Source: Candidatus Saccharimonadota bacterium (GTDB lineage Bacteria; Patescibacteriota; Patescibacteriia; 2-12-FULL-60-25). Taken from it: a stretch of 32,000 nucleotides of DNA. The stretch lies in NCBI GenBank assembly GCA_016699205.1, contig CP064964.1:90001-122000 (forward strand), written 5' to 3'. The notes beneath the pieces were generated by a model. That model was not told the DNA's origin and made no database searches. It saw only the letters and a list, made by a program, of their open reading frames with translations. A program made the position numbers and the translations under genes. Below are positions 3,896 through 24,921 of this stretch, in pieces. Positions within the stretch are counted from its first letter, which is position 1. The number at the start of each line of letters is the position of its first letter.

Positions 3896-3896
3896 A

Positions 3897-6488: not shown

Positions 6489-6492
6489 AGGG

Positions 6493-6517: not shown

Positions 6518-6928
6518 TTTTAGTAGGGAGGAGATTAGTCCATTCATGATCTTGGAAATCTCGTTGATATCTTGTAGTAGAGCACTTACTTCCAGCGAAT
6601 ACAAATCCTTTATGATTAAGATTTGTGTTTCTATTTCTGCGAGTGAGCCGTGCGCTGTTCTTACAAAGTGCAGGAAATCCTTTCTTGTACCACGCTTTGA
6701 ACCTTCCGCTATGTTAGAAGGAACTGATATAGCTGATCGTCTCAGTTGATTTTTTAAGCCGAATTCTTCTTTACTCGGTATTTTTTCAAGCAGTAAGTAG
6801 ATGCTTTTTGTGAGCAGCATGCTTTTCTGCCAAACAATTAAGTCCTTGAAACTTTTGATTGTTTTGTTGCCAGTTGGTCGATTCGCTACTGAAACCTGAC
6901 CACTGACACCTGAAAACTGTGTAGACAT
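6506..6928 (-). CDS. four-helix-bundle protein (23S rRNA intervening-sequence protein family)
   Basis: The core FKDLIVWQKSMLLTKSIY...LKNQLRRSAISVPSNIAEGSKRGTRKDFLHFVRTAHGSLAEIETQILI matches that family. The only in-frame start upstream of the core and clear of dprA is ATG 6928; the longest ORF, to 7003, would overlap dprA. Confidence 0.85.
   Translation of the reverse strand: MSTQFSGVSGQVSVANRPTGNKTIKSFKDLIVWQKSMLLTKSIYLLLEKIPSKEEFGLKNQLRRSAISVPSNIAEGSKRGTRKDFLHFVRTAHGSLAEIETQILIIKDLYSLEVSALLQDINEISKIMNGLISSLLKTET
6888..6912 (-). repeat. inverted-repeat arm (right) of the four-helix-bundle cassette
   Basis: ACTGAAACCTGACCACTGACACCTG. Its reverse complement differs from 6493-6517 at one position. 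It encodes residues SGVSGQVSV of the cassette ORF. Confidence 0.85.
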
Positions 6929-6944
6929 ATATATAAGACAAAGG

Positions 6945-7832
6945 TCATTTATGCAAACGTGAGGACGTTCGAGACCAGAATTGTCCGCCAAGTTGAGCCA
7001 CATATCCCTTCATCTCGAGTAGCGAGAGATGGGCGCTGGTTGTCGCCGAATCGAGGTTGGCTTGGGTTGCGAGATCATCGATATGGATATGACCGTTTAC
7101 CAGGGCGAGAATATGACTTTCTTGGGCGGTCAGAGGCATGGAAGCTCGTACTTGCGAGACGAGTTCCGGCCGATCGAGTTTTAAGGAATCAAGAATATCT
7201 TGGGCATTTGTGCAGGCTTTGGCGCCGAGCGATAAGAGCCGATTGCAGCCCATAGAAACATCCGACCAAATTGATCCGGGGACAGCCAGGACTTCACGAT
7301 TATATTCAAGCGCGAGCTTTGCCGTGATAAGAGAACCGCTGCTTTCATTAGCTTCGATCACTAGCGTTGCCGGAGTCCAGCCGGCGATGAGGCGATTTCT
7401 GCGCGGGAAGGCGTGCTTGAAGGAGGGCGATCCGGGTGGATTTTCCGAGATGATCGCTCCGCCGTTTTCTAAAATTCTATGCGCGAGCTTGAGATGTTCC
7501 CGTGGGTATATCGTGGGCTCGTCGATTCCGGTGCCGAGGATTGCGATCGTGTAGCCGCCTGCTTCAAGAGCTGTCGTGTGTGCTTCTCCGTCGATACCAA
7601 GCGCAAGTCCGGAAACGATTCCAATGCCGGCGCTTACAAGTCCGCGCACGATTTCTTGCGTTGCACGGCGACCGTAGGAAGTGCAACGACGTGTGCCGAC
7701 AATCGAGACGCACGGAATATCTTGTAATATTCCACGCAAGTACAATCCGTTTGGCGGATTGCTTATTTGACGGAGCAACGGCGGATAACGCGCGTCGCTA
7801 ATCGAGAGCATTTCAATGTTATTTGGAAGCAC
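6945..7832 (-). CDS. dprA: DNA-processing protein DprA (Smf)
   Basis: 295 aa with the DprA core GLALGIDGEAHTTALEAGGYTIAILGTGID...FPRRNRLIAG. The start is GTG 7832 (alternative ATG 7811). Confidence 0.9.
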   Translation of the reverse strand: MLPNNIEMLSISDARYPPLLRQISNPPNGLYLRGILQDIPCVSIVGTRRCTSYGRRATQEIVRGLVSAGIGIVSGLALGIDGEAHTTALEAGGYTIAILGTGIDEPTIYPREHLKLAHRILENGGAIISENPPGSPSFKHAFPRRNRLIAGWTPATLVIEANESSGSLITAKLALEYNREVLAVPGSIWSDVSMGCNRLLSLGAKACTNAQDILDSLKLDRPELVSQVRASMPLTAQESHILALVNGHIHIDDLATQANLDSATTSAHLSLLEMKGYVAQLGGQFWSRTSSRLHK

Positions 7833-7842
7833 TCTCTACTCC

Positions 7843-7869
7843 GTTGTATCAAAATTAAAATTATGTCAA
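7843..7869 (-). promoter_or_regulatory. candidate promoter of dprA
   Basis: The minus strand reads TTGACA (7864-7869), a 15-nt spacer ending in TGa, then TACAAC (7843-7848), with GTG 7832 10 nt downstream. The spacer is shorter than the optimum. Confidence 0.4.
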
Positions 7870-7884
7870 GGGGATATCCTTAAA

Positions 7885-7915
7885 ACAAAACGCCCGCTGG
7901 TGGCGGGTGTTTTGT
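7885..7915 (-). terminator. rho-independent terminator after pth / tRNA-like element
   Basis: Stem ACAAAACGCCCGC / GCGGGTGTTTTGT (one G-U pair) with a 5-nt loop, followed by a T-run on the minus strand. Confidence 0.65.
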
Positions 7916-7923
7916 ATTGGTTT

Positions 7924-8049
7924 GGCAACAATTGCAGACTTGGTACTCCTCTATCAGGATATTGTTTTCTGCTCACTGCGTCAAATTCCTTACGGAGCCG
8001 ATGCGGGGAATCGAACCCCGAACCACAGAGTACCAAGTCTGCAGTTGCC
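7924..8049. repeat. 22-bp inverted repeat (3-nt bulge) spanning the tRNA-like element
   Basis: GGCAAC-aat-TGCAGACTTGGTACTC (7924-7948) is complementary to GAGTACCAAGTCTGCA-GTTGCC (8028-8049). The right arm is the D/anticodon region of the tRNA-like sequence. Confidence 0.8.
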
Positions 8050-8062
8050 CCAGGCCATCGGC
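7996..8062 (-). tRNA. aberrant tRNA-like element (possible decayed tRNA; identity unclear)
   Basis: It has a canonical T arm CGGGG-TTCGATT-CCCCG (8004-8020) stacked on the acceptor helix GCCGATG/CATCGGC. However, only 13 nt lie where a D arm should be, the anticodon loop has 8 nt (GCAGA-CTTGGTAC-TCTGT), and no CCA is encoded. Total length is 67 nt. Confidence 0.35.
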
Positions 8063-8067
8063 TCGCC

Positions 8068-8637
8068 TTACACTCCGTTCCACGCATTCATCGTCTTTGT
8101 CAAGCCTTGGGAGATCCAATCGTTCATGGCTTGATTAAGTTTTTTTGTTTGCGCTTTCAGTAACTTCTTTTCTGCGGCAGAAAATTTACCTAAAACGTAA
8201 TCTTCTTTTGCCATGTGACGATCTGGTTTACTAACGCCAATACGGAGACGTGCGATATCGCGTGAACCGAGGCTTTGCTGAATCGACAAAATACCGTTAT
8301 GACCAGCAGGTCCGGAACCGGTTGAGAATTTGAATGATCCAACATCAAAATCCATTTCATCTTGAACGACGAGAATATCGGCGTTGTCCATTTTGAAATA
8401 GGATTTGAACATTTGTACCGAGTTGCCGGAAAGATTCATGAAGGTCAGCGGACGAGCGAATAGAATCTTTTTACCGTCGATATTGGCTTCTGCGACCTCG
8501 GCATGAAAGGCTGCTTTTTTGGAGAATGGCGTTGCGCCCACGCTTTCTGCGAACGCTGTAATAGCGTCCCAGCCAATGTTATGGCGGGTTCCGTCGTATT
8601 CCTTGCCAGGGTTCCCGAGACCGACGATGAGTTTCAT
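8068..8637 (-). CDS. pth: peptidyl-tRNA hydrolase
   Basis: 189 aa with MKLIVGLGNPGKEYDGTRHNIGW and GHNG motifs. TATCAT lies 7 nt upstream of the ATG. Confidence 0.95.
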   Translation of the reverse strand: MKLIVGLGNPGKEYDGTRHNIGWDAITAFAESVGATPFSKKAAFHAEVAEANIDGKKILFARPLTFMNLSGNSVQMFKSYFKMDNADILVVQDEMDFDVGSFKFSTGSGPAGHNGILSIQQSLGSRDIARLRIGVSKPDRHMAKEDYVLGKFSAAEKKLLKAQTKKLNQAMNDWISQGLTKTMNAWNGV

Positions 8638-8668
8638 GTGGGTAATGATATGCTATTCTGTCATAGAT

Positions 8669-9094
8669 ATGCAAAAGAATCATGATGCGGATCGATATTG
8701 GCTCGTGACTTTTGGTTACTGTTTCTCAGCTGCATTCATTTTTAATCTTGTTTTAGCTGTTATCTTTTCTCAATCGGGTTCATTTGATTTTGGAGGTGAC
8801 TTATTATTAATTTTTGTTGGCATCCCTTTATTTATTGCAATTGCTACTGTGATGATTGATGAGGCGAGATCAAAGGTCCGACCTGCGAACGTGTCTAAAA
8901 AAAGACATTGGGTCAAAATACTTATTTTCATTCTCCTCTCACAGGTCATTTCGTATGTGCCCTACACACTTCTTCGCAATACTTTAGAATGGTACTCATA
9001 CGATAGCCGGTCTCCTGAGGGGAACGCGAAGCGCTTGAACGCACAAGAGAATCGTAACCCTTATATACAAGGTGGATCTGTGTACATCAAATAA
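8669..9094 (+). CDS. hypothetical small membrane protein (about 3 TM segments)
   Basis: I placed the start at ATG 8669 (TGcTATTCT lies 9 nt upstream); the longer ORF from 8519 would overlap pth. Hydrophobic stretches include YWLVTFGYCFSAAFIFNLVLAVIF, LLLIFVGIPLFIAIATVMI and WVKILIFILLSQVISYV. Confidence 0.55.
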   Translation: MQKNHDADRYWLVTFGYCFSAAFIFNLVLAVIFSQSGSFDFGGDLLLIFVGIPLFIAIATVMIDEARSKVRPANVSKKRHWVKILIFILLSQVISYVPYTLLRNTLEWYSYDSRSPEGNAKRLNAQENRNPYIQGGSVYIK

Positions 9095-9123
9095 CAAAAT
9101 TCCCGCCAAAGCGGGAATTTTGT
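9094..9123. terminator. bidirectional rho-independent terminator
   Basis: A 13-bp perfect stem ACAAAATTCCCGC / GCGGGAATTTTGT with loop CAAA. It lies between the convergent membrane-protein gene and the repaired end of der. Confidence 0.75.
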
Positions 9124-9125
9124 GC

Positions 9126-10609
9126 TTAGTAGCGGCGACCACCGTGCTTCTGACGGCGCATGGTCTGGTTGACGAGCTTTTTTCTTTGTGGCGGACTTTT
9201 CCGACGACGGCTTCCATACCTGGACCGTTTACGTTGCGTTTCTTTTCCGTCTTGGCCATCGGCAAGTGGCGGACTTTGACGCGGATCGGGGTACCGGTGA
9301 AGGAGAATTTATCGCGTAAGCGCTTTTGGAAGAACTTGAGCCAGTTATTGTGCAAGTTGTCCTTGTCACCGTGTACCGTGACCAGGAAGGTCGGCGGTGC
9401 GTGGCCAGTTTGGGCGACGTCGTAAATACGAGGGGATTTTGGACCGTAGCTGGCAAGCGGCTTCATCTTTTGAATACACCACTTGAGTACGCGGTTTACG
9501 GCGTTATAGTCGATGTGACGCATGCGTTCCTCTTGAACCTTTACAGCCATCTCGATGAGTTTTCCGGCGCGCAAATCTTCCTTAGCACTCACAAAGACCA
9601 TCGGAGCCCAGGAAAGGAATGGGAAAAGCTGACGAATCAGCATTTCATATTCATTGGTAGAACCCGTGTCTTTGTTCTGAACTAAATCCCATTTGTTAGC
9701 GACCAGAATCAAACCTTTGCTCGATTCCTCCAACATGCCAGCCAAGTGGCGATCCTAAGCAGAAGGATCGACGGTTGCATCAAAGACGAGCAAGGCAACA
9801 TCGGCGGCTTCAACAGCTTGGCGATTACGTTCGATCGCTGCTTCTTCAATTCCTTTTTCTACGCGCGAACGCTTGCGCATACCAGCGGTATCAACAATCA
9901 CGACTTCCTGTCCGTTGTATTTCAAATGCGTGTCCTGAGGTTCACGCGTGGTGTGGGGGATCGGGGATACGATGGAGCGCTCCTCGCCAACGATGGCGTT
10001 TACGAGAGAGGACTTTCCGACGTTCGGGCGGCCGACAAGCGTGATGCGGAGCGGGCGGGCTTCCGGAATAACCTGCGGCGGCTTACCGATGCGGTTGAGT
10101 TCGATAAACAATTCGTCGAGCAAATCTCCAGAGCCGAGAGAAGTAGCTGCGCTGACGATGTGTGGGACGCCAAATCCGAGGGCTTGCCACTCTTTAGCCA
10201 TGCCGTCGTTGAATTCACGAAGCGTATCGACCTTGTTGGCCACGAGCCAGACATTCTTGTGAAGCTTGCGTACGTGGCGAGCGAGATCGAGATCCTGCGG
10301 CATGATTCCGGTACGAGCATCGACCACAAAGAGAACGACGTCTGCTTCTTTGATGGCTTTCTCGGCTTGTTTGCGGATACCTTCGCCGATCACATCTTTC
10401 TCCGTATCCATTCCACCGGTGTCGACCATTTCAAAAGAAGCTCCGTTCCAAATAACGGGAGCGTAGTTGCGGTCGCGGGTTGTGTGCGGACTGGCGCTGA
10501 CGATGGCACGGCCGGACTCAGTCAAGCGATTCCACAACGTGGATTTACCGACATTCGTACGTCCTACCAAGGCTACACGCGGCAAGTCACGGCCGAGTTT
10601 GTGTCGCAT
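9126..10609 (-). pseudogene. der: ribosome-associated GTPase Der (EngA), disrupted as assembled (in-frame TAG at 9755-9757; frameshift at T6 run 9178-9183)
   Basis: There are two tandem GTPase domains (GRTNVGKST...DTGG...NKVD and GRPNVGKSS...DTAG...NKWD) plus a KH-like domain, split into ORFs 9755..10609 and 8996..9745 in the same frame. The assembled C-terminus reads through the terminator. Adding one base to the run gives ...GKVRHKEKKLVNQTMRRQKHGGRRY and TAA at 9126-9128, just ahead of the hairpin. Confidence 0.9.
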
Positions 10610-12178: not shown

Positions 12179-12209
12179 ATGTTCTGTGCTTAATGTTCTA
12201 TGTTATACT
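12179..12209 (+). promoter_or_regulatory. direct-repeat promoter module of the T4SS-like operon
   Basis: ATGTTCTGTGC-tta-ATGTTCTATGT-TATACT, with the ATG at 12221 11 nt downstream. The TGt before TATACT forms an extended -10. It is 25 of 31 identical to the minus-strand module at 29078-29108. Confidence 0.5.
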
Positions 12210-12220
12210 GTTAGCGATTT

Positions 12221-15133
12221 ATGTCTTTGCGTTCATTGGCCGCTTGGAAAAAGCCTCTTGTTGTTAGTTTGCTGTTTTTTCTGATCGGTACAAATCTCTT
12301 AACGATGTTTGCGCCCACCGCGCATGCGCAAGACGGGGGTCGAGCCGCAGATGCCGCTGCTGCATTAATCGGTTCTGAAGCAAGACCAAGTGACAGTGCA
12401 GCGATTCGGATGGCGAGCGAGGCTGCTGCTTCTTCATCGGCTGTAAGTACGAGCGATGCTTGTACCGGCAGCGGTGTATTTGGTCCATTTTTAGGGTTTA
12501 TCTGTAGCGGCATGACACTGGTTCTTGGGCTTATTGTTGAACTACTTGGCAAGCTTGTTACATTGATTTTGTCCATTCTTCTCGCCTTCGCAAAATACAA
12601 TGCATTCGCGAGCGCGGCTCCGGTACAAGTTGGTTGGCCGATCGTGAGAGACATCTGCAACATGTTTTTCATCATCGTCCTTTTGGTTTCCGCTTTTGCG
12701 ACGATCATCGATCAAGCACAGAGTGATTTGCATTACACCAAGGTATTACCAAGGCTTCTGGCGATGGCTGTGTTGATCAACTTTTCAAAAACGCTCATCC
12801 AGCTGCTGATTGATTTTTCGCAGGTCGTGATGCTCACGTTTGTAAATGCGTTTGCCGCTTCGGCGAGCGGTAACTTTGTTAATGCTCTCGGATTGACGAC
12901 GATCATGCAGCTCGACACATCAGTTCCAGCAGGCACGGCAAACATGGCAAATATCATCATCTCGTACATGCTGGCGATTTTCATGCTTGGCATCATGATC
13001 TCGGTTGTCAGTCTTCTGACGAGATTCCTTATTTTCCGTATTGTCGGCCTTTGGATCGCACTTATTTTTTCACCTCTTGCTTTCTTTGTTACGGCGGTTC
13101 CAGGACGTTTGGCAAAGGGTCTCGGCAGTATTGCGAGCGATTATTGGGGTCGATTGGGCAGCTTGTTGAGCGGAGGACCGATTATTGCTTTCTTTTTGTG
13201 GCTTACGCTCGCCATTGTTCAGCAGGCGAACTCTGGAGCAGCAGGACAAGGACTTTCTCAGGTTTTGGACTTTGAAGTTGAGGGACCCGTGCAAGTTTTT
13301 TTGACTTCTATCGGTAATGCGCAGTCGATCGCGTCGTTCGTTGTCGGTATCACCTTGTTGATGATGGGCTTGGATCAGGCCGTGAAAACATCCGGACAAA
13401 TCAGCAGTACGTTGGGCGCTTTTGCTAGTAAGGCGAAGAGCGCAGGTACGTCGCTGGGTCGATTGGGTGCGTTGGCGCCGTTTTTGGCGGCTGGGTATGG
13501 AGCTCGTGCAGGAGCGCGAGCTGTTGATCAACGCTTTGATGTCACGAGACGTGCTTCAGCGCTTGGTCTTAAGACCGTTGGACGTGTTCCAGGTGTCGGG
13601 TCCGCTGTACGTCCGACGTTGGCGCGCGGTCTTACGATGCGAAGAGAAGAAGCTGCTGCTCAGGCTGCTCAGGAAGCCAAATTGGTTGGAAATGTTGCCA
13701 AGTTTGGTACTGATCAAGAACAGAAGATGGTCGGAAAGACTTACAGTATGAGCGGAAGCGCGTTCCGTACTCTTGGAGCTAGATCCGGCTCGATGAAAGT
13801 CGCCGAGATTTTGGCCACCGACAAGATTCGCGATCGCGAGATCAAGAAAAATGAAGAGAGCTATGTTGACCGCTTGAAGGCCTCCGGTATGTCGGAAGCT
13901 GAGGCGAAGAATGGCAGCAAGGTTTTGGCTGAGAAGGATGCTTATCGCGAACAGATGGGCTTTATTCAAAATCAGATCGAGTTGGCACGCGGACTTGGCG
14001 ACTTGGACAAGGTCGAAGATCTTGAGAAGGCGATTCGTATCAATCCATACATGGCTTCCGATAAAGACCGCCAGTCGCAGATTGATAAGCTCGCTACCGA
14101 TCCAGAGAAGTACAAGGATATTAATAAACAGGATGCGATGAGTGGAGATCTCTTAACTGGATTCATGCAGAAGCATGGATGGGAAACCAATGCAGCAGGG
14201 GAGCTCGCCATCAAAGACACGGCTGCTTATGACCGTTTGAAGGAATCTGTTCAGAAGTCTGGCAATAAGTCGCTTCTTGAAGGCTTGGAGGCACATGAGA
14301 CGTTTGTTGTTAATTCACCAGGGCTTAAAACATCAGAAGCCACACAGTTACAGCATCGCAAGAATTCAGCAGATGGCATGATTCAATCATTCAGTGTAGC
14401 CAGAGAAAATGGAGAGTGGCAGAAGGATTCGTCTGGTAATTTGAAAGCTGGAACACGTGTTCAAACAAAAAACTATACAAAGTCCCTTGCAGATCTTGAA
14501 TCAGCAACAGCAGCCCGTAAAAGCTCAGGTGATACTGTGCCTCGTGATGTTATACCGCAAAACAATATTGCAAATGCAAAGCTTGCCGATTCATTTATCT
14601 CAAACAATGGCACGCTGACGGACTATCTAGCTAAAGCAAAGAGTAGCGATGTCGATACTCTGCCTATTCAGACTATCCAGTATCAAGTTTTCAATGGAGC
14701 GGAATCTGGTATCGCTGCGCTGAATACCGGTGACTCAATCAAGGCAAATGAGACATTGAAACCCGTTAGTAGAATTCTCGCGCAGATTGATCAACAAGGT
14801 ATTTCAGACACGATGCAATCGGATATTATCGAGTCGTTCTCGACTGGCCTTAGGGACGTTTCAGGAAAGATCAATACTTCATTTGTAAGAAATATCGATA
14901 AACTGACACCACAGATTCGAGATTCCTTGGTGAAAACATTAGAAACCGCTAAGAAACGTGCGGACGACATACTTCAGAATGTCGCTAAAGATAAGATGAC
15001 GGAAGCACAGAAGGAAGTTGTTGCATTTTCAGATGCTGTTTCTAAGGAAATTGATATCAATCGCAAGAACATCAACTCACGCATTCTCAATGCCTATCGC
15101 CCAGGTCGCGATCGAGCTAGCGGAAATACATAA
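12221..15133 (+). CDS. VirB6/TrbL-like polytopic membrane protein with signal peptide and a ~550-aa hydrophilic C-terminal extension
   Basis: 970 aa. The signal peptide reads MSLRSLAAWKKPLVVSLLFFLIGTNLLTMFAPTAHA-QD. About 7-8 hydrophobic helices fall between residues ~80 and 390, in a TrbL/VirB6-like arrangement, followed by a long charged tail. It is the first gene of a cluster that contains VirB4 and PrgI-like genes. Confidence 0.7.
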   Translation: MSLRSLAAWKKPLVVSLLFFLIGTNLLTMFAPTAHAQDGGRAADAAAALIGSEARPSDSAAIRMASEAAASSSAVSTSDACTGSGVFGPFLGFICSGMTLVLGLIVELLGKLVTLILSILLAFAKYNAFASAAPVQVGWPIVRDICNMFFIIVLLVSAFATIIDQAQSDLHYTKVLPRLLAMAVLINFSKTLIQLLIDFSQVVMLTFVNAFAASASGNFVNALGLTTIMQLDTSVPAGTANMANIIISYMLAIFMLGIMISVVSLLTRFLIFRIVGLWIALIFSPLAFFVTAVPGRLAKGLGSIASDYWGRLGSLLSGGPIIAFFLWLTLAIVQQANSGAAGQGLSQVLDFEVEGPVQVFLTSIGNAQSIASFVVGITLLMMGLDQAVKTSGQISSTLGAFASKAKSAGTSLGRLGALAPFLAAGYGARAGARAVDQRFDVTRRASALGLKTVGRVPGVGSAVRPTLARGLTMRREEAAAQAAQEAKLVGNVAKFGTDQEQKMVGKTYSMSGSAFRTLGARSGSMKVAEILATDKIRDREIKKNEESYVDRLKASGMSEAEAKNGSKVLAEKDAYREQMGFIQNQIELARGLGDLDKVEDLEKAIRINPYMASDKDRQSQIDKLATDPEKYKDINKQDAMSGDLLTGFMQKHGWETNAAGELAIKDTAAYDRLKESVQKSGNKSLLEGLEAHETFVVNSPGLKTSEATQLQHRKNSADGMIQSFSVARENGEWQKDSSGNLKAGTRVQTKNYTKSLADLESATAARKSSGDTVPRDVIPQNNIANAKLADSFISNNGTLTDYLAKAKSSDVDTLPIQTIQYQVFNGAESGIAALNTGDSIKANETLKPVSRILAQIDQQGISDTMQSDIIESFSTGLRDVSGKINTSFVRNIDKLTPQIRDSLVKTLETAKKRADDILQNVAKDKMTEAQKEVVAFSDAVSKEIDINRKNINSRILNAYRPGRDRASGNT

Positions 15134-15139
15134 TCATCT

Positions 15140-16711
15140 ATGACTCATGATGAATGGCTGGAAGGCTTTAATGCCGCGCCGGATGCCGTTCAGGAGTACC
15201 TGCTCGGTCCCTCTTCTGGAACAGCTGAAGACGCAGCTCAGACGCGATTGGCTTACGATAATGATGCCTGGGACCGCTTGATGGATGCGGTTTGGGATCT
15301 GCTGTTCAAGAAAAGTTCACGCGGCGAGTTTGAAGCAAAATTAAAGATCGTTGCAGGGGATAGAAAACCGGAAGAAGTCGAGCGCGTGGTTTTGCGCTGG
15401 GTTGTATTACCTTTAGCGGATTTGGTTACTTGGGATGTCGAGGCGCGTTTACTCGAACTCGGGGTTCCGATTGGAGAAATTCAGGGTGCCGTGCGCGTTT
15501 CTTTGCGTCCGGTATCGTATGGCGCGGCTGTGCGACGTATTGCATCGACAGCAAAGATTAGCTTGTTGAATGAGGAGATCGTTAGAAAGATTCGTGACGT
15601 CATGGTCTCGGTTATTAAAGGCGTGAGATCAAAGGAACAAGCGCTTGAGATTTTGCAAAGGCAGCAGTCGGAGGGAGGTTTGGGATTCGCTCCTCAACAA
15701 GCACAAGCGTTTATTGCAGAAATGGAAACGTTTTTGGCGACAACGCAGGTCATGTCAGAGCAGGAATATGCCGAGTGGTATCGAAACTTTCAGCAGCAGT
15801 CGAATGCAGAGGAGGCGGAGGCTGCGAGCGCAAAACAGAAATCATCAGGCGACGAATTGAGTGGTGCAGGTATGCCAAAACCAGCCGTAAGCACGGATCC
15901 TGTTTTGGAAGCGGCTATCGATAGTGGGATGGCGCAGATCGGTGATTTGAAGTTGGATGAATATACAGCCAAACGCTTGAGGAATGTTGTGTCTACGCGT
16001 CTACGCGACGTGAGAAATGCCATGCAAACAAGAGCCATGCTGGAACGCGAGACGCATGTTGGCGGCGTGGGTCTGGCTCCGGACGTTGCGGCGCGGGTTG
16101 CTGCTATTATCGAGTCTACGTATCAGACCCAGCATTCTGCAATCGATGAAGAGCAGAGAAAGAGGATCGAGAGCATGCAGGATGAACAGCGTAAGAAGAT
16201 TGATGAACGAAAACAGCGTGAGAGCGAGGAGCATGCGGCTTGGTACAAGCAGAAAGTTGCTGGTGCGAAGGGAGATATAGCCGTTGAGCAGTTGCGGGCA
16301 GCGATGCAGGGGCAGGTTTTAGTGGATAGTGGTCAGGTTTCAGTGCAAGCGAAGCCTTCCATGATTGATATCGTGCCTCCGATGCGTCTTTCTGGACTTG
16401 GTGATGAATTAAAGTCGATGGATATTGAAACATTCCGTAGACAAGCCAAGACGCCAGAGCAGGCGGCTGAGAAGATTTATCAGAAGCTGGAAACCCTAAA
16501 GCGCGAGAACTTTGAACGCTGGACGGATGGCGTTGCCGCTTGGAGATCATCGCCATTACAGCAACAGTATCTGCGTTTAGTAACTGAAAGTTTCTCAACG
16601 GCTAAGCCGGTTGCACAACTCGTAGAGGAGAAGCGTAAAATTGATCCAAATCTACCAACAGCAGAGGAATTGGGAGCGATTATTGCGCTGAATGCCAGGA
16701 TTCAATTTTAG
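15140..16711 (+). CDS. hypothetical soluble acidic protein of the T4SS-like cluster
   Basis: 523 aa, starting 6 nt after the upstream gene. It has no TM segment, an internal duplicated ~50-aa motif and coiled-coil-like E/K/Q-rich stretches. No family was recognised. Confidence 0.75.
   Translation: MTHDEWLEGFNAAPDAVQEYLLGPSSGTAEDAAQTRLAYDNDAWDRLMDAVWDLLFKKSSRGEFEAKLKIVAGDRKPEEVERVVLRWVVLPLADLVTWDVEARLLELGVPIGEIQGAVRVSLRPVSYGAAVRRIASTAKISLLNEEIVRKIRDVMVSVIKGVRSKEQALEILQRQQSEGGLGFAPQQAQAFIAEMETFLATTQVMSEQEYAEWYRNFQQQSNAEEAEAASAKQKSSGDELSGAGMPKPAVSTDPVLEAAIDSGMAQIGDLKLDEYTAKRLRNVVSTRLRDVRNAMQTRAMLERETHVGGVGLAPDVAARVAAIIESTYQTQHSAIDEEQRKRIESMQDEQRKKIDERKQRESEEHAAWYKQKVAGAKGDIAVEQLRAAMQGQVLVDSGQVSVQAKPSMIDIVPPMRLSGLGDELKSMDIETFRRQAKTPEQAAEKIYQKLETLKRENFERWTDGVAAWRSSPLQQQYLRLVTESFSTAKPVAQLVEEKRKIDPNLPTAEELGAIIALNARIQF
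16304..16344 (+). repeat. third copy of the cassette repeat motif, inside a coding region
   Basis: ATGCAGGGGCAGGTTTTAGTGGATAGTGGTCAGGTTTCAGT. The 17-mer AGTGGTCAGGTTTCAGT (16328-16344) is identical to 6501-6517, and the upstream blocks ATGCA/GGGCAGGTTT/AGTGG also match 6483-6505. It encodes MQGQVLVDSGQVSV. Confidence 0.7.
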
Positions 16712-16807
16712 TTGTCATCCCCGTGAAAACGGGGATCCAGCTGAGTGAGATTGAATAAATGCTCGGATTTGTTAAGGCTGGATTCCTGCCTTCGCAGGAA
16801 TGACAAG
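16712..16807. repeat. pair of 30-nt palindromic (REP-like) units in inverted orientation
   Basis: Unit A is TTGTCAT-CCCCGT-GAAA-ACGGGG-ATCCAGC (16712-16741). The reverse complement of unit B (16778-16807) is TTGTCAT-TCCTGC-GAAG-GCAGGA-ATCCAGC. The flanks are identical and the hairpin stems differ by compensatory changes. Confidence 0.8.
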
Positions 16808-16812
16808 CATTG

Positions 16813-16821
16813 TGCTATAAT
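16813..16821 (+). promoter_or_regulatory. extended -10 promoter internal to the T4SS-like cluster
   Basis: TGcTATAAT, with ATG 16830 8 nt downstream. There is no Shine-Dalgarno sequence. Confidence 0.55.
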
Positions 16822-16829
16822 TACATCAA

Positions 16830-17273
16830 ATGCCAGAGAAATTCGTTGTACCTCAATTTATCGATAACGAAGATAAAATTCTCGGCCCGATTACGGTCAG
16901 ACAATTTTTGCTGTCTCTAGGTGGTACATTTGCGATATTTATCGAGTATCGTATTTTTACTTTGCCATTTTTCATCATCTTGGCGATTTTGACTGCAGCT
17001 TTTGTCGGCGTGTTTGGATTCTTGAAGATTAATGGCCAACCATTCCATTTGTTTTTCGTGAATGTCCTGCAAACCATGTCTCGGCCTAGGCTTCGGGTAT
17101 GGCATAAAGCGTTGAATGATGCCGAGTTGAAAGTTTTGGCGATTATGGCGCCTAAGGTGGAAGCGATCACGGCCTCCGTTACCAAGAGTCGTCCGGAATC
17201 GACACGTTTAAGGGATTTGGCTCTCACCGTAAATACGGGCGGGGTGTACAATCCTGATGAAGATCAGTCCTGA
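16830..17273 (+). CDS. PrgI-family (VirB3-like) small membrane protein
   Basis: 147 aa. The N-terminus FVVPQFIDNEDKILGPITVRQFLLSLGG, followed by two hydrophobic helices, is the PrgI-family pattern seen next to VirB4 in Gram-positive-type T4SS. Confidence 0.7.
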   Translation: MPEKFVVPQFIDNEDKILGPITVRQFLLSLGGTFAIFIEYRIFTLPFFIILAILTAAFVGVFGFLKINGQPFHLFFVNVLQTMSRPRLRVWHKALNDAELKVLAIMAPKVEAITASVTKSRPESTRLRDLALTVNTGGVYNPDEDQS

Positions 17274-17961
17274 TATGCAAAGCGCAAAACTAGCCGGACC
17301 TAAACCCGGAGTACCATCACAACGTTTCCTCGATGTCGCAGAGATCCGCGACAATATTGTCATTATGCGCGATGGAACATTACGTTCCATTTTGCTTGTT
17401 TCCAGCATCAACTTTTCGTTGAAGTCTGTTGATGAACAAAATGCCATCGTGCAAGCCTATATGCAGTTTTTGAATGGATTGGATTATCCGATTCAGGTCG
17501 TCATCCAGTCGCGTCGAATGAATATCGATAATTACATGCGCCAGTTGGATGAGAGCGAGAAAGTATTAACCAGCGATCTTTTAAAGCGCCAAATTCATGA
17601 CTATAAAGATTTCGTTGTTCAGCTCGTAAAGCTTGGTGATATCATGCAGAAGCGATTTTACGTGGTTGTTCCGTTGAACCCGGCTACGGACAAGGGGACG
17701 GTGCAGAAGGGATTTGCCCAGCGTTTAGCAGAAATTTTTTCGCCAACCATTGTTGGAAAACTTACAGAGGAACGTTTTCAAAAATTGCAGTTCGATCTCA
17801 GCTTGCGTGTGAATCAAATTATCGGCAGATTGGCGAGTATGTCGCTTAATGCCGTGCAGCTTGATACGCAGAGTTTAATCGAGATGCTGTATACCGTTTA
17901 TAATCCGGAATTGTTTGAAACGCAGCGCATGAGCGATATCAGTAAACTCCAACTCGAATAA
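17257..17961 (+). CDS. hypothetical T4SS-associated protein resembling the extreme N-terminal module of Gram-positive VirB4 ATPases
   Basis: 234 aa. The start is ATG 17257 (17-nt overlap with the upstream gene) or ATG 17275. It carries the pattern QRFLDVAEIRDNIVIMRDGTLRSILLVSSINFSLKSVDEQNAIVQAYMQFLNGLDYPIQVVIQS. The stop lies 1 nt before the virB4 ATG. Confidence 0.7.
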   Translation: MKISPDMQSAKLAGPKPGVPSQRFLDVAEIRDNIVIMRDGTLRSILLVSSINFSLKSVDEQNAIVQAYMQFLNGLDYPIQVVIQSRRMNIDNYMRQLDESEKVLTSDLLKRQIHDYKDFVVQLVKLGDIMQKRFYVVVPLNPATDKGTVQKGFAQRLAEIFSPTIVGKLTEERFQKLQFDLSLRVNQIIGRLASMSLNAVQLDTQSLIEMLYTVYNPELFETQRMSDISKLQLE

Positions 17962-17962
17962 T

Positions 17963-19861
17963 ATGGCCTTTACACCGGAACAAAAACCAGGCTTTGACCC
18001 TTCGCAGATCACGAAGGGCGGTGTTGGCTTGCAAAAAGGCCCAAATAAGGAAGAACGCGCCAAGGCCACAGAAGAACAAAAAATCGCTCTTGAGGAAGAG
18101 CGTATTTATCGTAAGGGTGTTGCATCGATCAAAGATTTGATTGCGCCAGCATCAATGGTCGTTGAACCGTCATTTGTGCGTCTGGGCGATGTTTATTGCC
18201 GTACGCTGTTCGTCGTCACGTATCCGCGTTATGTGACGGTTGGATGGGCCTCGCCGATTATTAACTTGTCGGCACAGTTGGATATCGCGATGTTCTTTTA
18301 TCCGATTAAAGCGGATATCGTTTTGAAGCAGCTCAAGCGTAAAGTCGGTGTCCTTGAAGCGCAGATTTCTTCTGATGCCGAGTCCGGAAAGCCTCGCGAT
18401 CCGATCAATGAGACGGCTTTGCGCGATATCGAGCAGCTGCGTGATGATTTGACGCAGGGTATTGAGCACTTTTTCCAATTTGCGTTTTATTGCACGTTCT
18501 ATTCAAAAGATAAGGATGAGCTGGAGCGTGTAACATCAAGTGTAGAAAGCACATTTGCTGCGATGTTGATTTATACGCGTCGATCGTATTTCCAGGCTGA
18601 ACAAGGCTTCAACTCGACATTGCCGGTTGGAAACGATGAGTTACAGATCACCTTTAACATGAGCACCTCGCCGATTGCGTCGTCTTTTCCGTTTACATCG
18701 GCGGAGCTTACGAGCGATAACGGTATTTTGTATGGCGTGAATCGCCATAATAACTCGCTCATCATTTTTGACCGTTTCTCGCTTCAGAACGCGAATGCGA
18801 TTGTCTTTGCTACTTCTGGTGCCGGTAAATCGTATGCGGTTAAGCTCGAGATCATCCGATCGTTGATGCTTGGCGTGGATGTTATCGTTATCGATCCAGA
18901 ATCGGAATATAAGCATTTGTCCGATGCCGTCGGAGGAACGTATATCAACATTTCTTTGGCCTCGCGCTCCAAGATCAATCCATTTGATTTGCCGAGACCG
19001 ACAGGAGAAGCGTTTGCTGTCGAGGATATTATCCGAAGTGCTGTTATTACGATCAAAGGCTTGCTGCGCTTGATGTTGGGCAAGGTTACGACGACAGAAG
19101 ACTCGATCTTGGACCGAGCATTGCTTGAAACGTACGCCAAGAAGGACATCATGCCGGGCGCTGATCTCTCATCGGTCGAGCCGCCAATTTTGCAGGACTT
19201 CCAGAGTATTCTTGAAGGCATGGAGGGGACGGCCGAGTTGATTGTCAAACTTAAAAAGTTTACGGAGGGCACATTCTCCGGTCTTTTGAACTCGCCGACC
19301 ACCGTGCAGATGAATAATCAGCTCGTGGTTTTCTCGGTGCGTGATCTTGAAGATGAATTGCGATCCATGTCGATCTATACGATTATCAACTACATTTGGA
19401 ATGTGGTGCGATCGGAACGTAAGAAGCGCATTTTGATTATTGATGAGGCTTGGTGGCTGATGCAGTCGGAAGATTCTGCCAAGTTTATCTTTGCTCTCGT
19501 GAAACGCTGCCGTAAGTACTTCTTGGGAATCACGACAATTACACAGGATGTGAATGACTTTTTGACTTCACCTTACGGACAGGCGATTGTAACCAACAGC
19601 TCGATGCAGCTTTTGTTAAAGCAATCGCCGGCTGCCATCGACCTTGTTGCCAGAACATTCTTGCTGACGCAGTCGGAAAAATATCTTTTGCTTGAGTCTG
19701 GCGTTGGTGAGGGTATTTTCTTTGCCGGAGCCAAGCATGCCGCTATTCAGATCGTTGCTTCTTACACGGAGGACCAGATCGTTACAACGAATCCGCAGCA
19801 ACTGCTCAAGATCGAGGCCGCCAAGAAGGAGTTTGAAGAATCACAAAACCCTGGAGTCTAG
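17963..19861 (+). CDS. virB4: VirB4-family type IV secretion ATPase
   Basis: 632 aa. It has a VirB4 N-domain (YCRTLFVVTYPRYVTVGWASPIIN), Walker A FATSGAGKSYAVK, Walker B RILIIDEAWWLM and the downstream motif GITTITQDVNDF. Confidence 0.9.
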   Translation: MAFTPEQKPGFDPSQITKGGVGLQKGPNKEERAKATEEQKIALEEERIYRKGVASIKDLIAPASMVVEPSFVRLGDVYCRTLFVVTYPRYVTVGWASPIINLSAQLDIAMFFYPIKADIVLKQLKRKVGVLEAQISSDAESGKPRDPINETALRDIEQLRDDLTQGIEHFFQFAFYCTFYSKDKDELERVTSSVESTFAAMLIYTRRSYFQAEQGFNSTLPVGNDELQITFNMSTSPIASSFPFTSAELTSDNGILYGVNRHNNSLIIFDRFSLQNANAIVFATSGAGKSYAVKLEIIRSLMLGVDVIVIDPESEYKHLSDAVGGTYINISLASRSKINPFDLPRPTGEAFAVEDIIRSAVITIKGLLRLMLGKVTTTEDSILDRALLETYAKKDIMPGADLSSVEPPILQDFQSILEGMEGTAELIVKLKKFTEGTFSGLLNSPTTVQMNNQLVVFSVRDLEDELRSMSIYTIINYIWNVVRSERKKRILIIDEAWWLMQSEDSAKFIFALVKRCRKYFLGITTITQDVNDFLTSPYGQAIVTNSSMQLLLKQSPAAIDLVARTFLLTQSEKYLLLESGVGEGIFFAGAKHAAIQIVASYTEDQIVTTNPQQLLKIEAAKKEFEESQNPGV

Positions 19862-19871
19862 AATTTAATCT

Positions 19872-20495
19872 ATGAGAAATCGCATTCTACTTATCTTGCT
19901 CGTCATCGCCGCTCTTGCCGGCGTTATTGCCGTTGTCTGGTTCATCTTGCGACCGGTTCTTCCGGGAGGTTTAGCACCTCAGCCGCCTGGATCGACACAG
20001 AATCAAGCTGAGAAGCCGTTTAATCCGACGCCTGCCTTGCCGCAGCCAACGACGTCGACAGGAACGGTTGATGCAACGTCAGCCGCTGAGCGGGAGCGTC
20101 AGGCGCAGGAAGCCTTGAAGCGCACGTCGCTTGATATGGCAGCTCGCTTGAATACCTATTCAAATGCTGATGGATTTGATGCGTTGCGCGTGCTCCAGGC
20201 TAGCGTTGATCCGGCGATGGCATTAAAGCTGGAAGCGACGCGTATTGGCTTGCGTCGTGATCATCCAAGCTTTGGAAATTCCTGGGGCCAAACAGTTCAA
20301 GCTCTCTCGGCCGAGATCAACAGCCCGCCGCCAATTTTGACCGCAACCCAAGCTTCCGTGACTGTTCAGGCGCAAACGACGGTTGAGGATGCTGGGAAAG
20401 CAAATGTTGTTACGCAGAATGGTATCGATCTGACGTTTAAACGCAATGGCAATGCCTGGGTTGTCATCGACATGGGTATCCGCGCTGGCGAATAA
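19872..20495 (+). CDS. hypothetical bitopic membrane protein (possible VirB8-like component)
   Basis: 207 aa with a single N-terminal TM (ILLILLVIAALAGVIAVVWFIL), a Pro-rich linker and a ~120-aa C-terminal domain. It lies directly after virB4. Confidence 0.7.
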   Translation: MRNRILLILLVIAALAGVIAVVWFILRPVLPGGLAPQPPGSTQNQAEKPFNPTPALPQPTTSTGTVDATSAAERERQAQEALKRTSLDMAARLNTYSNADGFDALRVLQASVDPAMALKLEATRIGLRRDHPSFGNSWGQTVQALSAEINSPPPILTATQASVTVQAQTTVEDAGKANVVTQNGIDLTFKRNGNAWVVIDMGIRAGE

Positions 20496-21117
20496 GATAC
20501 TCGATAGCTTATTTCCGCCCGTCTGTATCGGTTGTGGTACAGGCGGGTTTTGGTGTTGTGATGATTGTCTCGAATCGATCGATTTTGCCGTAGTGGCGCC
20601 TCACGTTGAAGGAATTGATCGATTAAAGATTATCGGATCTTATGCGCATCCGGTCCTTAGAAAATTGATGACGAATTATAAATATCGATCCGCAAGATGC
20701 TTTGAACCGACGCTACGCGAACTTGTCAGACGCTGGAGAGATCAGACAGCTTTCAGAATCGAAGGGGATTGGACGATTGTTCCAACACCAACGGATGAGA
20801 AGCACATTTTGGAGCGCGGGTTTGACCATACGGAACATCTGGCGATGATCGTGCGTGATGAGCTCATACCACAAGCGAAGGTCATGAAACTCATGAGGCG
20901 CAATCGCAAGACTGAAGCGAATGCAAATTTACATGATATAGAACTGCGTAAGGGAAATCTTCTGAATTCGATTGAGTGTATCGAGCAGGTGAGTCGGAAT
21001 ATCCTACTAATCGATGACATTGTTACAAGCGGAGCGACAATGGGGGAATGTGCCAAGGCTTTGCGTAACGCTGGGGCAGAAAAGATCGAGGGATTTGCTT
21101 TTGCTTTGGGTGGTTGA
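20446..21117 (+). CDS. comF: ComF-family competence protein (phosphoribosyltransferase-type)
   Basis: It has the N-terminal Cys pairs LFPPVCIGCG...WCCDDC and the C-terminal PRTase motif ILLIDDIVTSGATMGECAKAL. Possible in-frame starts are ATG 20446, ATG 20452 and TTG 20461, all of which overlap the upstream gene by 35-50 nt. Confidence 0.85.
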   Translation: MAMPGLSSTWVSALANKILDSLFPPVCIGCGTGGFWCCDDCLESIDFAVVAPHVEGIDRLKIIGSYAHPVLRKLMTNYKYRSARCFEPTLRELVRRWRDQTAFRIEGDWTIVPTPTDEKHILERGFDHTEHLAMIVRDELIPQAKVMKLMRRNRKTEANANLHDIELRKGNLLNSIECIEQVSRNILLIDDIVTSGATMGECAKALRNAGAEKIEGFAFALGG

Positions 21118-21120
21118 AAT

Positions 21121-21147
21121 AAAAATCCGCATATTGAGCGGATTTTT
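21121..21147. terminator. rho-independent terminator ending the T4SS-comF operon (also faces the convergent SRPBCC remnant)
   Basis: Stem AAAAATCCGC / GCGGATTTTT with a 7-nt loop and a T-run. Confidence 0.8.
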
Positions 21148-21156
21148 ATTTCAGAG

Positions 21157-21591
21157 CTACGCTGTCCTCTCTACGAATTCCTTAAACGCTACCAAATATT
21201 TCATGGATTGTTTTTTAAATGCTCCTGGCATCAAGAAGCCAATAATTTTCATAAATCCCTGAAATTGGAACTCCTGTTCCGTGATATACTTTGTTTTTGT
21301 CTCGGAAATGGGTATAAAAATATTTTTTACAATATTGAATACCCCCTTTGCCTCATACGTACCCGTAATTCTTTTGGAAGATTTCTCACGGTCACTGTTT
21401 CAATCATCTCCATCTCACCTCTGTCCGTCTTGAACTTTAGACGTGATTTTGCACCTACCTGGCCAGGCTCACCGCTTATTGGCTCAAACTGATAAGCCCC
21501 TCCATCCACTCTTTAAGTTGTCTTGGTTATCAAATAACTCAATCACCTTGCTCATTGGCCGGTCGATAACGATTTCTGAAGAGTATTTCAT
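21157..21591 (-). pseudogene. SRPBCC-superfamily protein gene broken by three 1-nt frame shifts as assembled
   Basis: Three consecutive frame segments read MKYSSEIVIDRPMSKVIELFDNQDNLK / EWMEGLIS / FEPISGEPGQVGAKSRLKFKTDRGEMEMIETVTVRNLPKE / (F)TGTYEAKGVFNIVKNIF...FQGFMKIIGFLMPGAFKKQSMKYLVAFKEFVERTA. The shifts map to short runs at about 21512-21514, 21486-21488 and 21367-21368. Confidence 0.75.
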
Positions 21592-21662
21592 AAAATGATA
21601 GTCTAGGATTCTGTTGAAAACAACAGCCTGCGAATAGGGTATTAATGGGGAGGGCCAACCGT

Positions 21663-23869: not shown

Positions 23870-23958
23870 TGGCGGAGAGGGTGAGATTCGAACTCACGGT
23901 ACCTTTTGGGTACGGCAGATTTCAAGTCTGCTGCTTTAGACCACTCAGCCACCTCTCC
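23870..23958 (-). tRNA. tRNA-Ser (anticodon UGA), CCA encoded
   Basis: The reverse complement folds as acceptor GGAGAGG, anticodon arm GCAGA-CTTGAAA-TCTGC, a long variable arm GTACC-caaaa-GGTAC, T arm GTGAG-TTCGAAT-CTCAC, then CCTCTCC-G-CCA. Length is 89 nt. Confidence 0.95.
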
Positions 23959-24007: not shown

Positions 24008-24730
24008 TTATTCAGCTCTTATCAGAACGAGCTGCTTGCTCGACTCGGCGTCAATCGACATCTCTCCTTGATAATATCCGTACTCATGAAGCTTAAACAC
24101 CAGTCTATCCTTGGAAGCACTGTCGATAACTCCCCAATATCTGAACTTTTCCGGCCGTCTACTGTTCAGTGCTGTTGCAAATGAAATCGTGTATGTGCCG
24201 TTAGGAAGCGGGCTGAGACCGACGGTCCCGGTGGTGTAGAACTGTTCATCGAGACCACGGTATAAAACCATACTCATTTGATGATCGGATGCTTCCACAT
24301 TCTTGAGATCAAAGGTTAGCTGAGTACCAGCAAAATTTGTCTTCCATTTACCCTCCATTATTTCGCGGATAGCGGGTAATCCGCGAACCGCGCGCTCGGA
24401 AGATTGTTGCATGAAAAATTGACTCAAGAAAATCCGTCCAACGATAATTACTGGTATGAGGAATGCACAAACAAGATATATTGATATGGTCTTGACTCGG
24501 TTTTGACCCTTGGCGAGAAAAATGATCGGCGTCAGCAAGATCATGAGTATGATAAACGGCCCCCCATAAAGCAGCGCCAGAATAAACCATGGGACGGAGG
24601 CCGAGCCCCCATAGCCCAAAGCGCTTATCGCCAGGAATCCAATGTAAAGGTTTCCAAGAAAAAATGCGATAACTAGACAGATAATAGCCACGATAAGTCC
24701 CGTTTTGGTCGAGTGCGGTGTTTCATTCAT
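24008..24730 (-). CDS. hypothetical membrane protein (about 4 TM segments plus a C-terminal beta-rich domain)
   Basis: 240 aa. The N-terminal half is hydrophobic (GLIVAIICLVIAFFLGNLYIGFLAISAL, PWFILALLYGGPFIILMILLTPIIFL, ISIYLVCAFLIPVIIVGRIFL). No family was recognised. Confidence 0.7.
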   Translation of the reverse strand: MNETPHSTKTGLIVAIICLVIAFFLGNLYIGFLAISALGYGGSASVPWFILALLYGGPFIILMILLTPIIFLAKGQNRVKTISIYLVCAFLIPVIIVGRIFLSQFFMQQSSERAVRGLPAIREIMEGKWKTNFAGTQLTFDLKNVEASDHQMSMVLYRGLDEQFYTTGTVGLSPLPNGTYTISFATALNSRRPEKFRYWGVIDSASKDRLVFKLHEYGYYQGEMSIDAESSKQLVLIRAE

Positions 24731-24832: not shown

Positions 24833-24921
24833 GGAGAGGTACCCAAGAGGCTGAAGGGGGGAGATTGCTAATCTCCTAGGGTCGAAAGGCCGCGAGGGTT
24901 CGAATCCCTCCCTCTCCGCCA
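24833..24921 (+). tRNA. tRNA-Ser (anticodon GCU), CCA encoded
   Basis: Acceptor GGAGAGG, anticodon arm GGAGA-TTGCTAA-TCTCC, a long variable arm, T arm GAGGG-TTCGAAT-CCCTC, then CCTCTCC-G-CCA. Length is 89 nt. Confidence 0.95.

Follow-up and report, generated by a model that had tools for sequence, protein, structure and literature searches.

The DNA analysed here is a stretch of 32,000 nt (positions 90,001 to 122,000 of contig CP064964.1, assembly GCA_016699205.1), referred to below as the window. Its forward strand carries seven adjacent open reading frames (ORFs) in which a small type IV secretion system (T4SS) runs directly into comF. From 5' to 3' these are ORF1 (12221-15133, 970 aa), a candidate extended VirB6/TrbL-like channel subunit; ORF2 (15140-16711, 523 aa), an orphan that is acidic, all-helical and presumably cytoplasmic; ORF3 (16830-17273, 147 aa), a PrgI/VirB3-like membrane protein; ORF4 (17257-17961, 234 aa), a free-standing VirB4 N-terminal domain of the TrsD type; ORF5 (17963-19861, 632 aa), a VirB4 ATPase of the monoderm CD1110/MPF-FATA type that comprises its middle and C-terminal parts; ORF6 (19872-20495, 207 aa), a predicted bitopic VirB8-like protein; and ORF7 (20446-21117, 223 aa), which is ComFC and overlaps ORF6 by up to 50 nt. 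The coordinates given in an initial annotation, together with the successive junctions of +6, +118, -17, +1, +10 and -50 nt, were all reproduced exactly in an ORF check. These are real genes rather than chance ORFs, each having same-order orthologues in 80 other genomes.

The cluster is almost certainly a relaxase-less T4SS of the Patescibacteria clade, derived from monoderm conjugation machinery. The original observation is real and was accurately described, and the locus is a typical member of a system that has already been published. What is new here is a structural VirB8 call for ORF6, the assignment of ORF4 as the N-domain of VirB4, the orphan family of ORF2, numbers for the comF junction, and the anatomy of the candidate promoters and the terminator; these add detail without changing the published picture.

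The same gene set is found on a contig from the same species (L202; GCA_963851785.1, CAWKPQ010000002.1), and the 632-aa VirB4 matches, at 100% identity, NCBI proteins named Candidatus Uhrbacteria bacterium. The window is accordingly assigned to a Candidatus Uhrbacteria (Patescibacteria/CPR) chromosome. The wider comparison set comprised 80 species-representative loci with VirB4 proteins 70-96% identical, drawn from metagenome-assembled genomes of Uhrbacteria, Magasanikbacteria and Falkowbacteria, all of which I take to belong to class ABY1 in GTDB.

Components of the cluster

The ATPase is encoded in two parts. ORF5 matches model NF045971 (conju_CD1110) with an E value of 2.6e-104 and 350 bits, above the cut-off of 325, over model positions 170-729. 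It also matches Pfam P-loop_TraG, AAA_10 and DUF87, and the C-terminal domain of VirB4 in the PDB (4ag5, E 4.9e-47). The Walker A (SGAGKS) and Walker B (ILIIDEAWW) motifs that had been claimed for this protein are confirmed, and its family matches, along with those of PrgI described below, support the description of the locus as a T4SS-type cluster. The window also gave 60 bits against NF041017 CedB (cut-off 700) and 23 bits against CedD (cut-off 600); the similarity to CedB is generic to VirB4.

ORF4 provides the N-terminus that ORF5 is missing, as a TrsD-type free-standing VirB4 N-domain. In NCBIfam it matches within the N-terminal 100-230 positions of four VirB4/TrsD models, namely VirB4_plasma at positions 113-233 (E 1.9e-7), the CD1110 VirB4 at positions 13-100 (E 2.9e-4), TrsD NF041427 (E 1e-3) and VirB4 PRK13853 at positions 19-141 (E 1.1e-3), and the copy in the same-species contig has a precomputed Pfam match to PF26593, which is TraC-like. 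In 78 related loci virB4 is preceded by a TrsD-type ORF, with a median gap of 6 nt, and at least 120 VirB4 homologues among the matches listed are ~630 aa long. I considered and rejected a frameshift artefact as the origin of the split: because the division of VirB4 is conserved in all relatives, it does not stem from the assembly, despite the broken genes found elsewhere in it. Separately, the four genomes of one clade (L018, at 2320-9760, and L019, L022 and L027) have 4.9-7.4 kb inserted between trsD and virB4; in L018, ten ORFs of this insertion had no Pfam match.

ORF3 was described at the outset as a PrgI/VirB3-like protein, and its match to Pfam PrgI (PF12666; E 6.5e-10) clears the cut-off of 27 bits with 39.9, with a transmembrane (TM) helix at 47-65.

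The AlphaFold2 (AF2) model of ORF6, built from 27 sequences with a predicted local distance difference test score (pLDDT) of 83.5, places a TM helix at 2-26 and a disordered, Pro-rich linker at 27-70, followed by three helices and a four-strand sheet. Its best Foldseek match is CagV/VirB8 (6iqt; E 2.6e-4, TM-score 0.71 normalised to the target), and further matches include Agrobacterium tumefaciens VirB8 (2cc3), TraM (3wz3), TcpC (3ub1) and PrgL (7aed). Generic NTF2 folds score about like VirB8, and the gene context adds to the VirB8 call: given the order PrgH-PrgI-PrgJ(VirB4)-PrgK-PrgL in pCF10, ORF6 sits where a VirB8 is expected. An ORF of ~192-220 aa occupies the place between virB4 and comF in 71 loci, and a profile of 71 orthologues aligned with PrgL of pCF10 by hhalign (E 3.2e-4). 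As modelled, ORF6 is a bitopic VirB8-like protein with an NTF2-like domain.

ORF1 had been labelled VirB6/TrbL with a signal peptide. The signal peptide and the polytopic topology stand: ~7-8 TM helices span aa ~100-390 and are followed by a variable, K/R-rich tail of ~580 aa. Conservation is limited to aa ~100-390, with 18 invariant residues over 51 orthologues. The family label is less secure, as it draws on weak matches to Pfam TrbL in 6/85 orthologues (3/51 and 3/34; best E 1.9e-4 and 5.6e-5). TrbL is nevertheless the sole recurring family, TrbL_4 being matched by 1/51 orthologues. The ORF1 protein of the window itself has no Pfam match, hhalign detected no similarity to PrgH of pCF10, tblastn against 72,556 plasmids returned no match, and a profile search of the PDB was negative. 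With 8420 cluster representatives at E<=1e-3, the ORF1 family is a large one. Topology and gene position are consistent with VirB6, and ORF1 may be weakly assigned as TrbL/VirB6-like.

ORF2 is acidic and has no TM helix. Its AF2 model is all-alpha (pLDDT 83), and the sequence contains an internal duplication (31% identity over 59 aa, E 1e-8). The 167 homologues are all from Patescibacteria and all named 'hypothetical', and the gene holds the same position in 73 loci. Foldseek found no fold match in the PDB or BFVD, and Pfam gave no usable match on 60 family members; a PDB profile search gave a marginal match to the GpsB/DivIVA N-domain (E 0.008). ORF2 has no similarity to the ORF1 tail. It is a conserved orphan of the cluster and presumably cytoplasmic. 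The initial annotation left four of the seven proteins without a nameable family, which is too many, ORF4 being assigned as TrsD/VirB4-N and ORF6 as VirB8-like.

As the initial annotation had reported, no VirD4 or other type IV coupling protein (T4CP), relaxase, VirB11, pilin or hydrolase domain was found by Pfam and NCBIfam in the ORFs of at least 120 aa across the 32 kb. Inspection of the unassigned small ORFs revealed no pilin-like features, pilin hidden Markov models having been run only on the ORFs of at least 120 aa. No window ORF matched the VirB7, VirB9 or VirB10 families in Pfam or NCBIfam. No intergenic gap in the window exceeds 545 nt, which on inspection is too little to conceal pilin genes.

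Conservation of the comF junction

The naming of ORF7 as ComF is borne out by a zinc ribbon (Pfam DZR_2), a phosphoribosyltransferase (PRT)-like domain (Pribosyltran) and conserved motifs. In NCBIfam it matches TIGR00201 comF, whose 233-bit cut-off it does not reach (68 bits, E 1e-18), as well as GntX (E 1e-14), and its profile matches Helicobacter pylori ComF (7p0h). Over 69 orthologues, the four cysteines C27, C30, C38 and C41 never vary, and there is little or no variation in the RxRGFNQ motif or in the phosphoribosyl pyrophosphate (PRPP) loop LVDDVxTTGAT (DDxxTxG). On this pattern the zinc ribbon and PRT motifs of ComFC are evidently under purifying selection.

The gene order VirB6-like/ORF2/PrgI/TrsD/VirB4/~200-aa ORF/ComF is kept across the 80 loci. 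The initial annotation had held that its proposal would suffer if the comF adjacency were not conserved in relatives; among the 74 loci with enough downstream sequence, comF lies at most 1.2 kb 3' of virB4 in 72, so that the proposal is not refuted on this count. Of the two exceptions, L059 reflects an artefact of ORF calling. In L072, comF follows on the same strand after an 8.6-kb insert (12663-21185) placed behind the VirB8-like gene, and this insert encodes, again on the same strand, DUF5667 proteins of 1274 and 819 aa and three small ORFs. The DUF5667 proteins are possibly lineage-specific surface components of the system. The stop codon of the VirB8-like gene and the start of comF are a median of 1 nt apart, with an overlap between the genes in 33/71 loci.

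ComF is 23-70% identical across loci, as against 70-96% for VirB4, and because ComF differs this much the lineages must be old. The surroundings of the cluster are less stable. L005, L007 and L009 carry the LytR-Der-Pth block in inverted orientation, L057 retains an inverted Der-Pth part, and no such block was detected upstream of the cluster in L054-L080. The junction between cluster and comF persists despite these inverted or replaced upstream flanks. On the other side, recG lies 3' of comF at varying distances in at least 15/80 loci, including distant ones.

It is highly improbable that the arrangement is inherited synteny without function, with comF merely the next gene, or that the cluster is a decaying remnant. 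All 80 loci do come from one class, so that shared ancestry could explain the adjacency, and there are three broken genes within 32 kb of this assembly. However, all seven ORFs are intact in the window and in relatives, VirB4 is unusually conserved (the 70-96% identity given above), the catalytic and zinc motifs of ComFC are invariant or nearly so, and the flanks rearrange whereas the cluster-comF junction stays.

Promoters, repeats and terminator

The predicted promoter region of the operon (12179-12209, forward strand) consists of two ATGTTCTRTG heptad-type repeats, 14 nt apart, that run into an extended -10 element, TGTTATACT (12201-12209). This element ends 11 nt 5' of the ORF1 ATG, and the leader would therefore be very short or absent. 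The promoter-region motif is identical in the same-species contig L202 and partly kept in the next species (L052), where the flanks are divergent, and relatives have TGnTAnnnT 8-12 nt 5' of the ORF1 start codon. As a candidate promoter, TGTTATACT probably drives the operon.

The +118 gap between ORF2 and ORF3 had been said to hold a pair of hairpins resembling repetitive extragenic palindromes (REP) and an internal promoter. Folding confirmed the REP-like inverted pair (16712-16806, with arms at 16712-16741 and 16777-16806), which as RNA reaches -41.7 kcal/mol (z = -5.6 against shuffles). Among the loci compared it is confined to the window, L202 and L052, and across relatives the ORF2/ORF3 gap has a median of 10.5 nt, most gaps being 0-30 nt. 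For the promoter, a candidate extended -10 was found, TGCTATAAT (16813-16821, forward strand), 8 nt 5' of the ORF3 ATG. The same extended -10 is found, equally far from the ATG, in the window and in six related loci (L001, L002, L003, L052, L066 and L073). It was not picked up by a generic -35/-10 promoter scan because it lacks a -35 element. TGCTATAAT is a candidate internal promoter that may give rise to a leaderless or near-leaderless prgI-virB4-comF transcript; the transcription start sites and near-leaderless transcripts are those that I infer from these elements.

The single terminator that was said to close the gene set is real. It is an intrinsic terminator at 21114-21154 (-21.3 kcal/mol, z = -7.1; 0/200 shuffles fold as well), and it could work in both directions because the hairpin is flanked by an A-run and a U-run.

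Some of these elements belong to a wider population of repeats. Different palindromic or heptad-satellite arrays of 80-230 nt have been gained repeatedly at the ORF2/PrgI junction across Uhrbacteria lineages, and unrelated inserts are found there in, for example, L007, L042, L047, L049, L056 and L057. The tandem ATGTTCTRTG motif, with its 14-nt spacing and a following extended -10, occurs at 12179-12202 (forward strand), 29085-29108 (reverse strand) and 29118-29134 (forward strand). In its 24-nt tandem form it has two occurrences in the window versus 0 expected by chance. The second site lies 5' of a membrane-protein ORF (28559-29068) that is divergent from recG. Both sites are kept in L202, and at the second site in L052 the extended -10 alone survives. 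The idea that the motif marks a shared regulon was dropped, as its matches in metagenome contigs are nearly all period-7 ATGTTCT satellites and none comes from related genomes. It is probably part of the heptad satellites that are widespread in these genomes and not a regulator site.

Another heptad repeat, of the CAGGTTT/CAGTGGT type, forms a 96% inverted repeat (6490-6524 and 6888-6919) around the gene for a 23S-intervening-sequence (IVS) protein. The same type of repeat is found again at 16296-16344 within the coding sequence of ORF2, at the start of a disordered, low-confidence linker. Its recurrence there suggests that a satellite was inserted into the coding region.

Comparison with known systems

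Quinonero-Coronel et al. (2025; PMC12102498) described a distinct clade of Patescibacteria VirB4 related to MPF-FATA, found TrsD to be the most abundant accessory T4SS component in Patescibacteria, and reported PrgI/VirB3, VirB6-like and VirB8-like proteins, the last mostly in ABY1. T4SS loci of the ABY1 class commonly occur with comF, recG and radA, and the pairing of T4SS and comF is thus already in print (PMC12102498). With the T4SS of this clade, including that of Southlakia epibionticum (SEML1_0006-0019; Wang et al., 2023, PMC10633639), the window shares a chromosomal MPF-FATA-derived VirB4, a separate TrsD and PrgI/VirB3. A VirB8-like protein (in the clade mainly in ABY1), the lack of a nearby relaxase or T4CP, and the presence of comF, recG and radA are likewise common to both, and ORF1 is a candidate for the VirB6-like protein of the clade. 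VirB2-like pilin genes are frequent in the clade but not universal, whereas neither a VirB2-like pilin array nor a hydrolase is recognisable in the window. The ORF2 family and the long variable tail of ORF1 are not among the components named in PMC12102498 or PMC10633639.

The Prg/Pcf system of pCF10 from Enterococcus faecalis, the prototype of MPF-FATA, shares with the window the CD1110 VirB4 family and the order PrgH(VirB6)-PrgI(VirB3)-PrgJ(VirB4)-...-PrgL(VirB8). However, the VirB4 of pCF10 is undivided, and the plasmid also encodes a hydrolase (PrgK), a coupling protein (PcfC), a relaxase (PcfG) and adhesins, all of which the window cluster lacks. The Trs system of the Staphylococcus plasmids pGO1/pSK41 is the only classical subclass with a free-standing TrsD related to the N-terminus of VirB4 (PMC12102498), a feature that it shares with the window. 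Unlike the window cluster, it is plasmid-borne and conjugative, has a relaxase, and is without a VirB6 homologue according to the same study.

The cluster might be an ordinary conjugative or DNA-exporting T4SS whose relaxase, coupling protein and oriT lie elsewhere in the genome, although I regard this as improbable. Its VirB4 is of the conjugative CD1110 family, the PrgH-I-J-(K)-L order of pCF10 is recapitulated, and T4CP homologues are located far from virB4 in many Patescibacteria (PMC12102498). Yet the cluster lies among housekeeping genes with chromosomal synteny conserved in 80 species and not on a mobile element, relaxases occur in only 103 Patescibacteria genomes and rarely near virB4 (PMC12102498), and the 32-kb window contains none.

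The initial annotation drew an analogy with the ComB system of Helicobacter pylori. ComB is a T4SS without relaxase or T4CP that imports DNA upstream of ComEC, ComFC and DprA (PMC9005727), and the window likewise lacks relaxase and T4CP. The analogy is a loose one: ComB is a diderm system of VirB2-4/6-10 that brings double-stranded DNA into the periplasm, whereas the window encodes a monoderm machine of the CD1110/pCF10 kind without VirB7, VirB9 and VirB10. Moreover, comF lies outside the comB operons in H. pylori, unlike in the window. The Ced system of Sulfolobales (CedA/CedB) is a minimal single-membrane importer with a polytopic VirB6-like protein, a VirB4-type ATPase and no relaxase, a make-up that the window cluster may share. 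Ced is archaeal and has no ComFC partner, and its relatedness to the window does not extend beyond generic VirB4. It would be the closest functional analogue if the cluster does import DNA.

Possible function

In the single species in which this has been examined, the T4SS of Patescibacteria is essential for epibiotic growth, and the system comes without conjugation parts. Of the genomic evidence, the linkage of comFC to the T4SS in ABY1, close to dprA, radA and recG, points most clearly to incoming DNA as a possible substrate. If true, this would bear on how auxotrophic Patescibacteria acquire nucleotides and genes. The mechanism that I prefer for ABY1 is DNA import with hand-over to ComFC, to which I would give a probability of roughly 0.4. 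The sequences show the gene identities, their order, conservation and operon signals; the substrate, the direction of transport and any contact between ComFC and the T4SS I infer from these.

The proposed membrane platform of the cluster consists of the extended VirB6-like ORF1, the PrgI/VirB3 protein (ORF3) and the bitopic VirB8-like ORF6. Its power comes from the VirB4 ATPase, made up of ORF5 and the separately encoded TrsD N-domain of ORF4, and ORF2 is a helical part, presumably cytoplasmic. Transcription probably starts from the extended -10 at 12201-12209, with a second start from that at 16813-16821, and ends at the single terminator after comF. In the import mechanism, VirB4/TrsD would drive DNA from the cell surface or from an attached host cell through the VirB6/VirB8/VirB3 channel. 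On the cytoplasmic side, co-translated ComFC would take the DNA and hand single strands to DprA, RecA, RadA and RecG, and the imported DNA could be used for recombination or nucleotide salvage.

Ancestral MPF-FATA machines translocate single-stranded DNA (ssDNA). Inward transfer is favoured because the ancestral machine moves ssDNA and the operon-level fusion to comF is both deep and tight. It is also favoured because the parts for export are missing while the transformation-associated genes dprA, comFC and radA, along with recG, cluster around the system; dprA, topA, recG and radA, which the initial annotation had placed nearby, were all found within the 32-kb window. In H. pylori, ComFC associates with the membrane and binds ssDNA, and DNA requires it to cross the membrane (PMC9005727). 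The proposal of import or cell-cell contact made in the initial annotation is in keeping with the comF linkage and with the lack of relaxase and T4CP in 32 kb. Its import half, however, is drawn from the neighbourhood of the genes, and there is precedent for the idea, PMC12102498 having reported the relaxase-less T4SS of Patescibacteria and its association with comF, recG and radA in ABY1.

Several points weigh against import with hand-over to ComFC. In S. epibionticum, T4SS genes are essential for growth on the host whereas comEC, comF and dprA are non-essential, and transformation needs comEC (Wang et al., 2023; PMC10633639), findings on T4SS essentiality and comEC/comF/dprA dispensability that a review restates (PMC12857230). 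Because comF is dispensable there and the T4SS is not, the core role of the family would not need ComFC. Within ABY1, genes for ComEC and a competence pseudopilus are present in the genus Patescibacterium (PMC11809585), and ComFC would therefore have a conventional partner. Only in one class is comF linked to the T4SS (PMC12102498), and gene adjacency alone is not function. Finally, no ComEA-like DNA receptor, nuclease or ssDNA-binding protein was found in the cluster, and the VirB6 assignment of ORF1, the putative channel, is weak.

Much of this would sit comfortably with a host-contact machine, that is, an essential conduit or effector-delivery device at the interface between epibiont and host, as the T4SS seems to be in Saccharibacteria, with which comF is only co-expressed. 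With comF at the end of the operon, ordinary uptake by ComEC and type IV pili would be switched on simultaneously, without physical coupling of ComFC to the T4SS. The logic would run from contact through damage to uptake of the released DNA, like the co-regulation of the type VI secretion system and competence in Vibrio. I regard this as the main rival and as only slightly less probable than import. Besides the essentiality of the T4SS and the dispensability of comEC, comF and dprA in S. epibionticum, and the ComEC and pseudopilus of the ABY1 genus, it has on its side the highly variable tail of ORF1 and the large genes for putative surface proteins inserted into the cluster of L072, both of which fit a host-specific contact function. 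However, overlap or abutment of the VirB8-like gene and comF over such deep divergence is more typical of subunits of one complex, and the window holds no recognisable gene for an effector, adhesin or pilin.

The reading of DNA import with hand-over to ComFC can be pushed further. The ABY1 T4SS might be an inward DNA conduit that docks ComFC directly and works independently of ComEC, making it a monoderm bacterial counterpart of the archaeal Ced system. DNA, perhaps drawn directly from the host to which the cell is attached, would pass on to DprA, RadA and RecG, with ORF2 and the VirB6 tail replacing the missing coupling protein. In this strong form, the proposal is doubtful and I think it rather unlikely to be correct.

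Other features of the window

Upstream, the cluster is flanked by parB, relA/spoT, topA, the 23S-IVS protein gene, dprA, pth, der and a divergent lytR-family gene. Downstream are small accessory genes, tRNAs, a gene for a secreted 877-aa PG_binding_1 protein, ahpC, recG and radA. In the upstream part, the gaps at 7833-8067 and 8638-8995 are unusually long for a compact genome. No Rfam family or tRNA was found in either; the first holds a 20-nt inverted repeat that is 95% complementary (7929-7948 / 8028-8047).

The broken genes of the window lie outside the cluster. In der/engA (8996-10609, reverse strand), the gene for an essential GTPase, there is an in-frame TAG at 9755-9757, where 7/8 relatives have Gln and one has Trp. 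The gene is intact in the same-species contig (493 aa), and reassignment of the stop codon was rejected for this reason; the TAG may stem from an error in sequencing or from a nonsense mutation specific to the strain, or it may be read through. In recG (ORFs 29118-30164 and 29942-31213), a frameshift at ~30020-30160 falls just after the Walker A motif GSGKT, and the L202 copy is again intact (698 aa). Fragments of an SRPBCC/Polyketide_cyc2 gene at 21150-21600 (reverse strand), which is an intact 145-aa ORF in L202, make up the third broken gene within the 32 kb.

A 240-aa membrane ORF at 24008-24730 is apparently extra in comparison with L202. It is bracketed in the window by tRNA-Ser genes at 23870-23958 and 24833-24921, and may be a small insertion at a tRNA. 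Just beyond it, the 877-aa secreted protein (24985-27618), conserved in L202, contains three repeats, each of ~200 aa, and ends in a PG_binding_1 domain. No hydrolase domain is recognisable in it, and it could be a wall-anchored surface protein.

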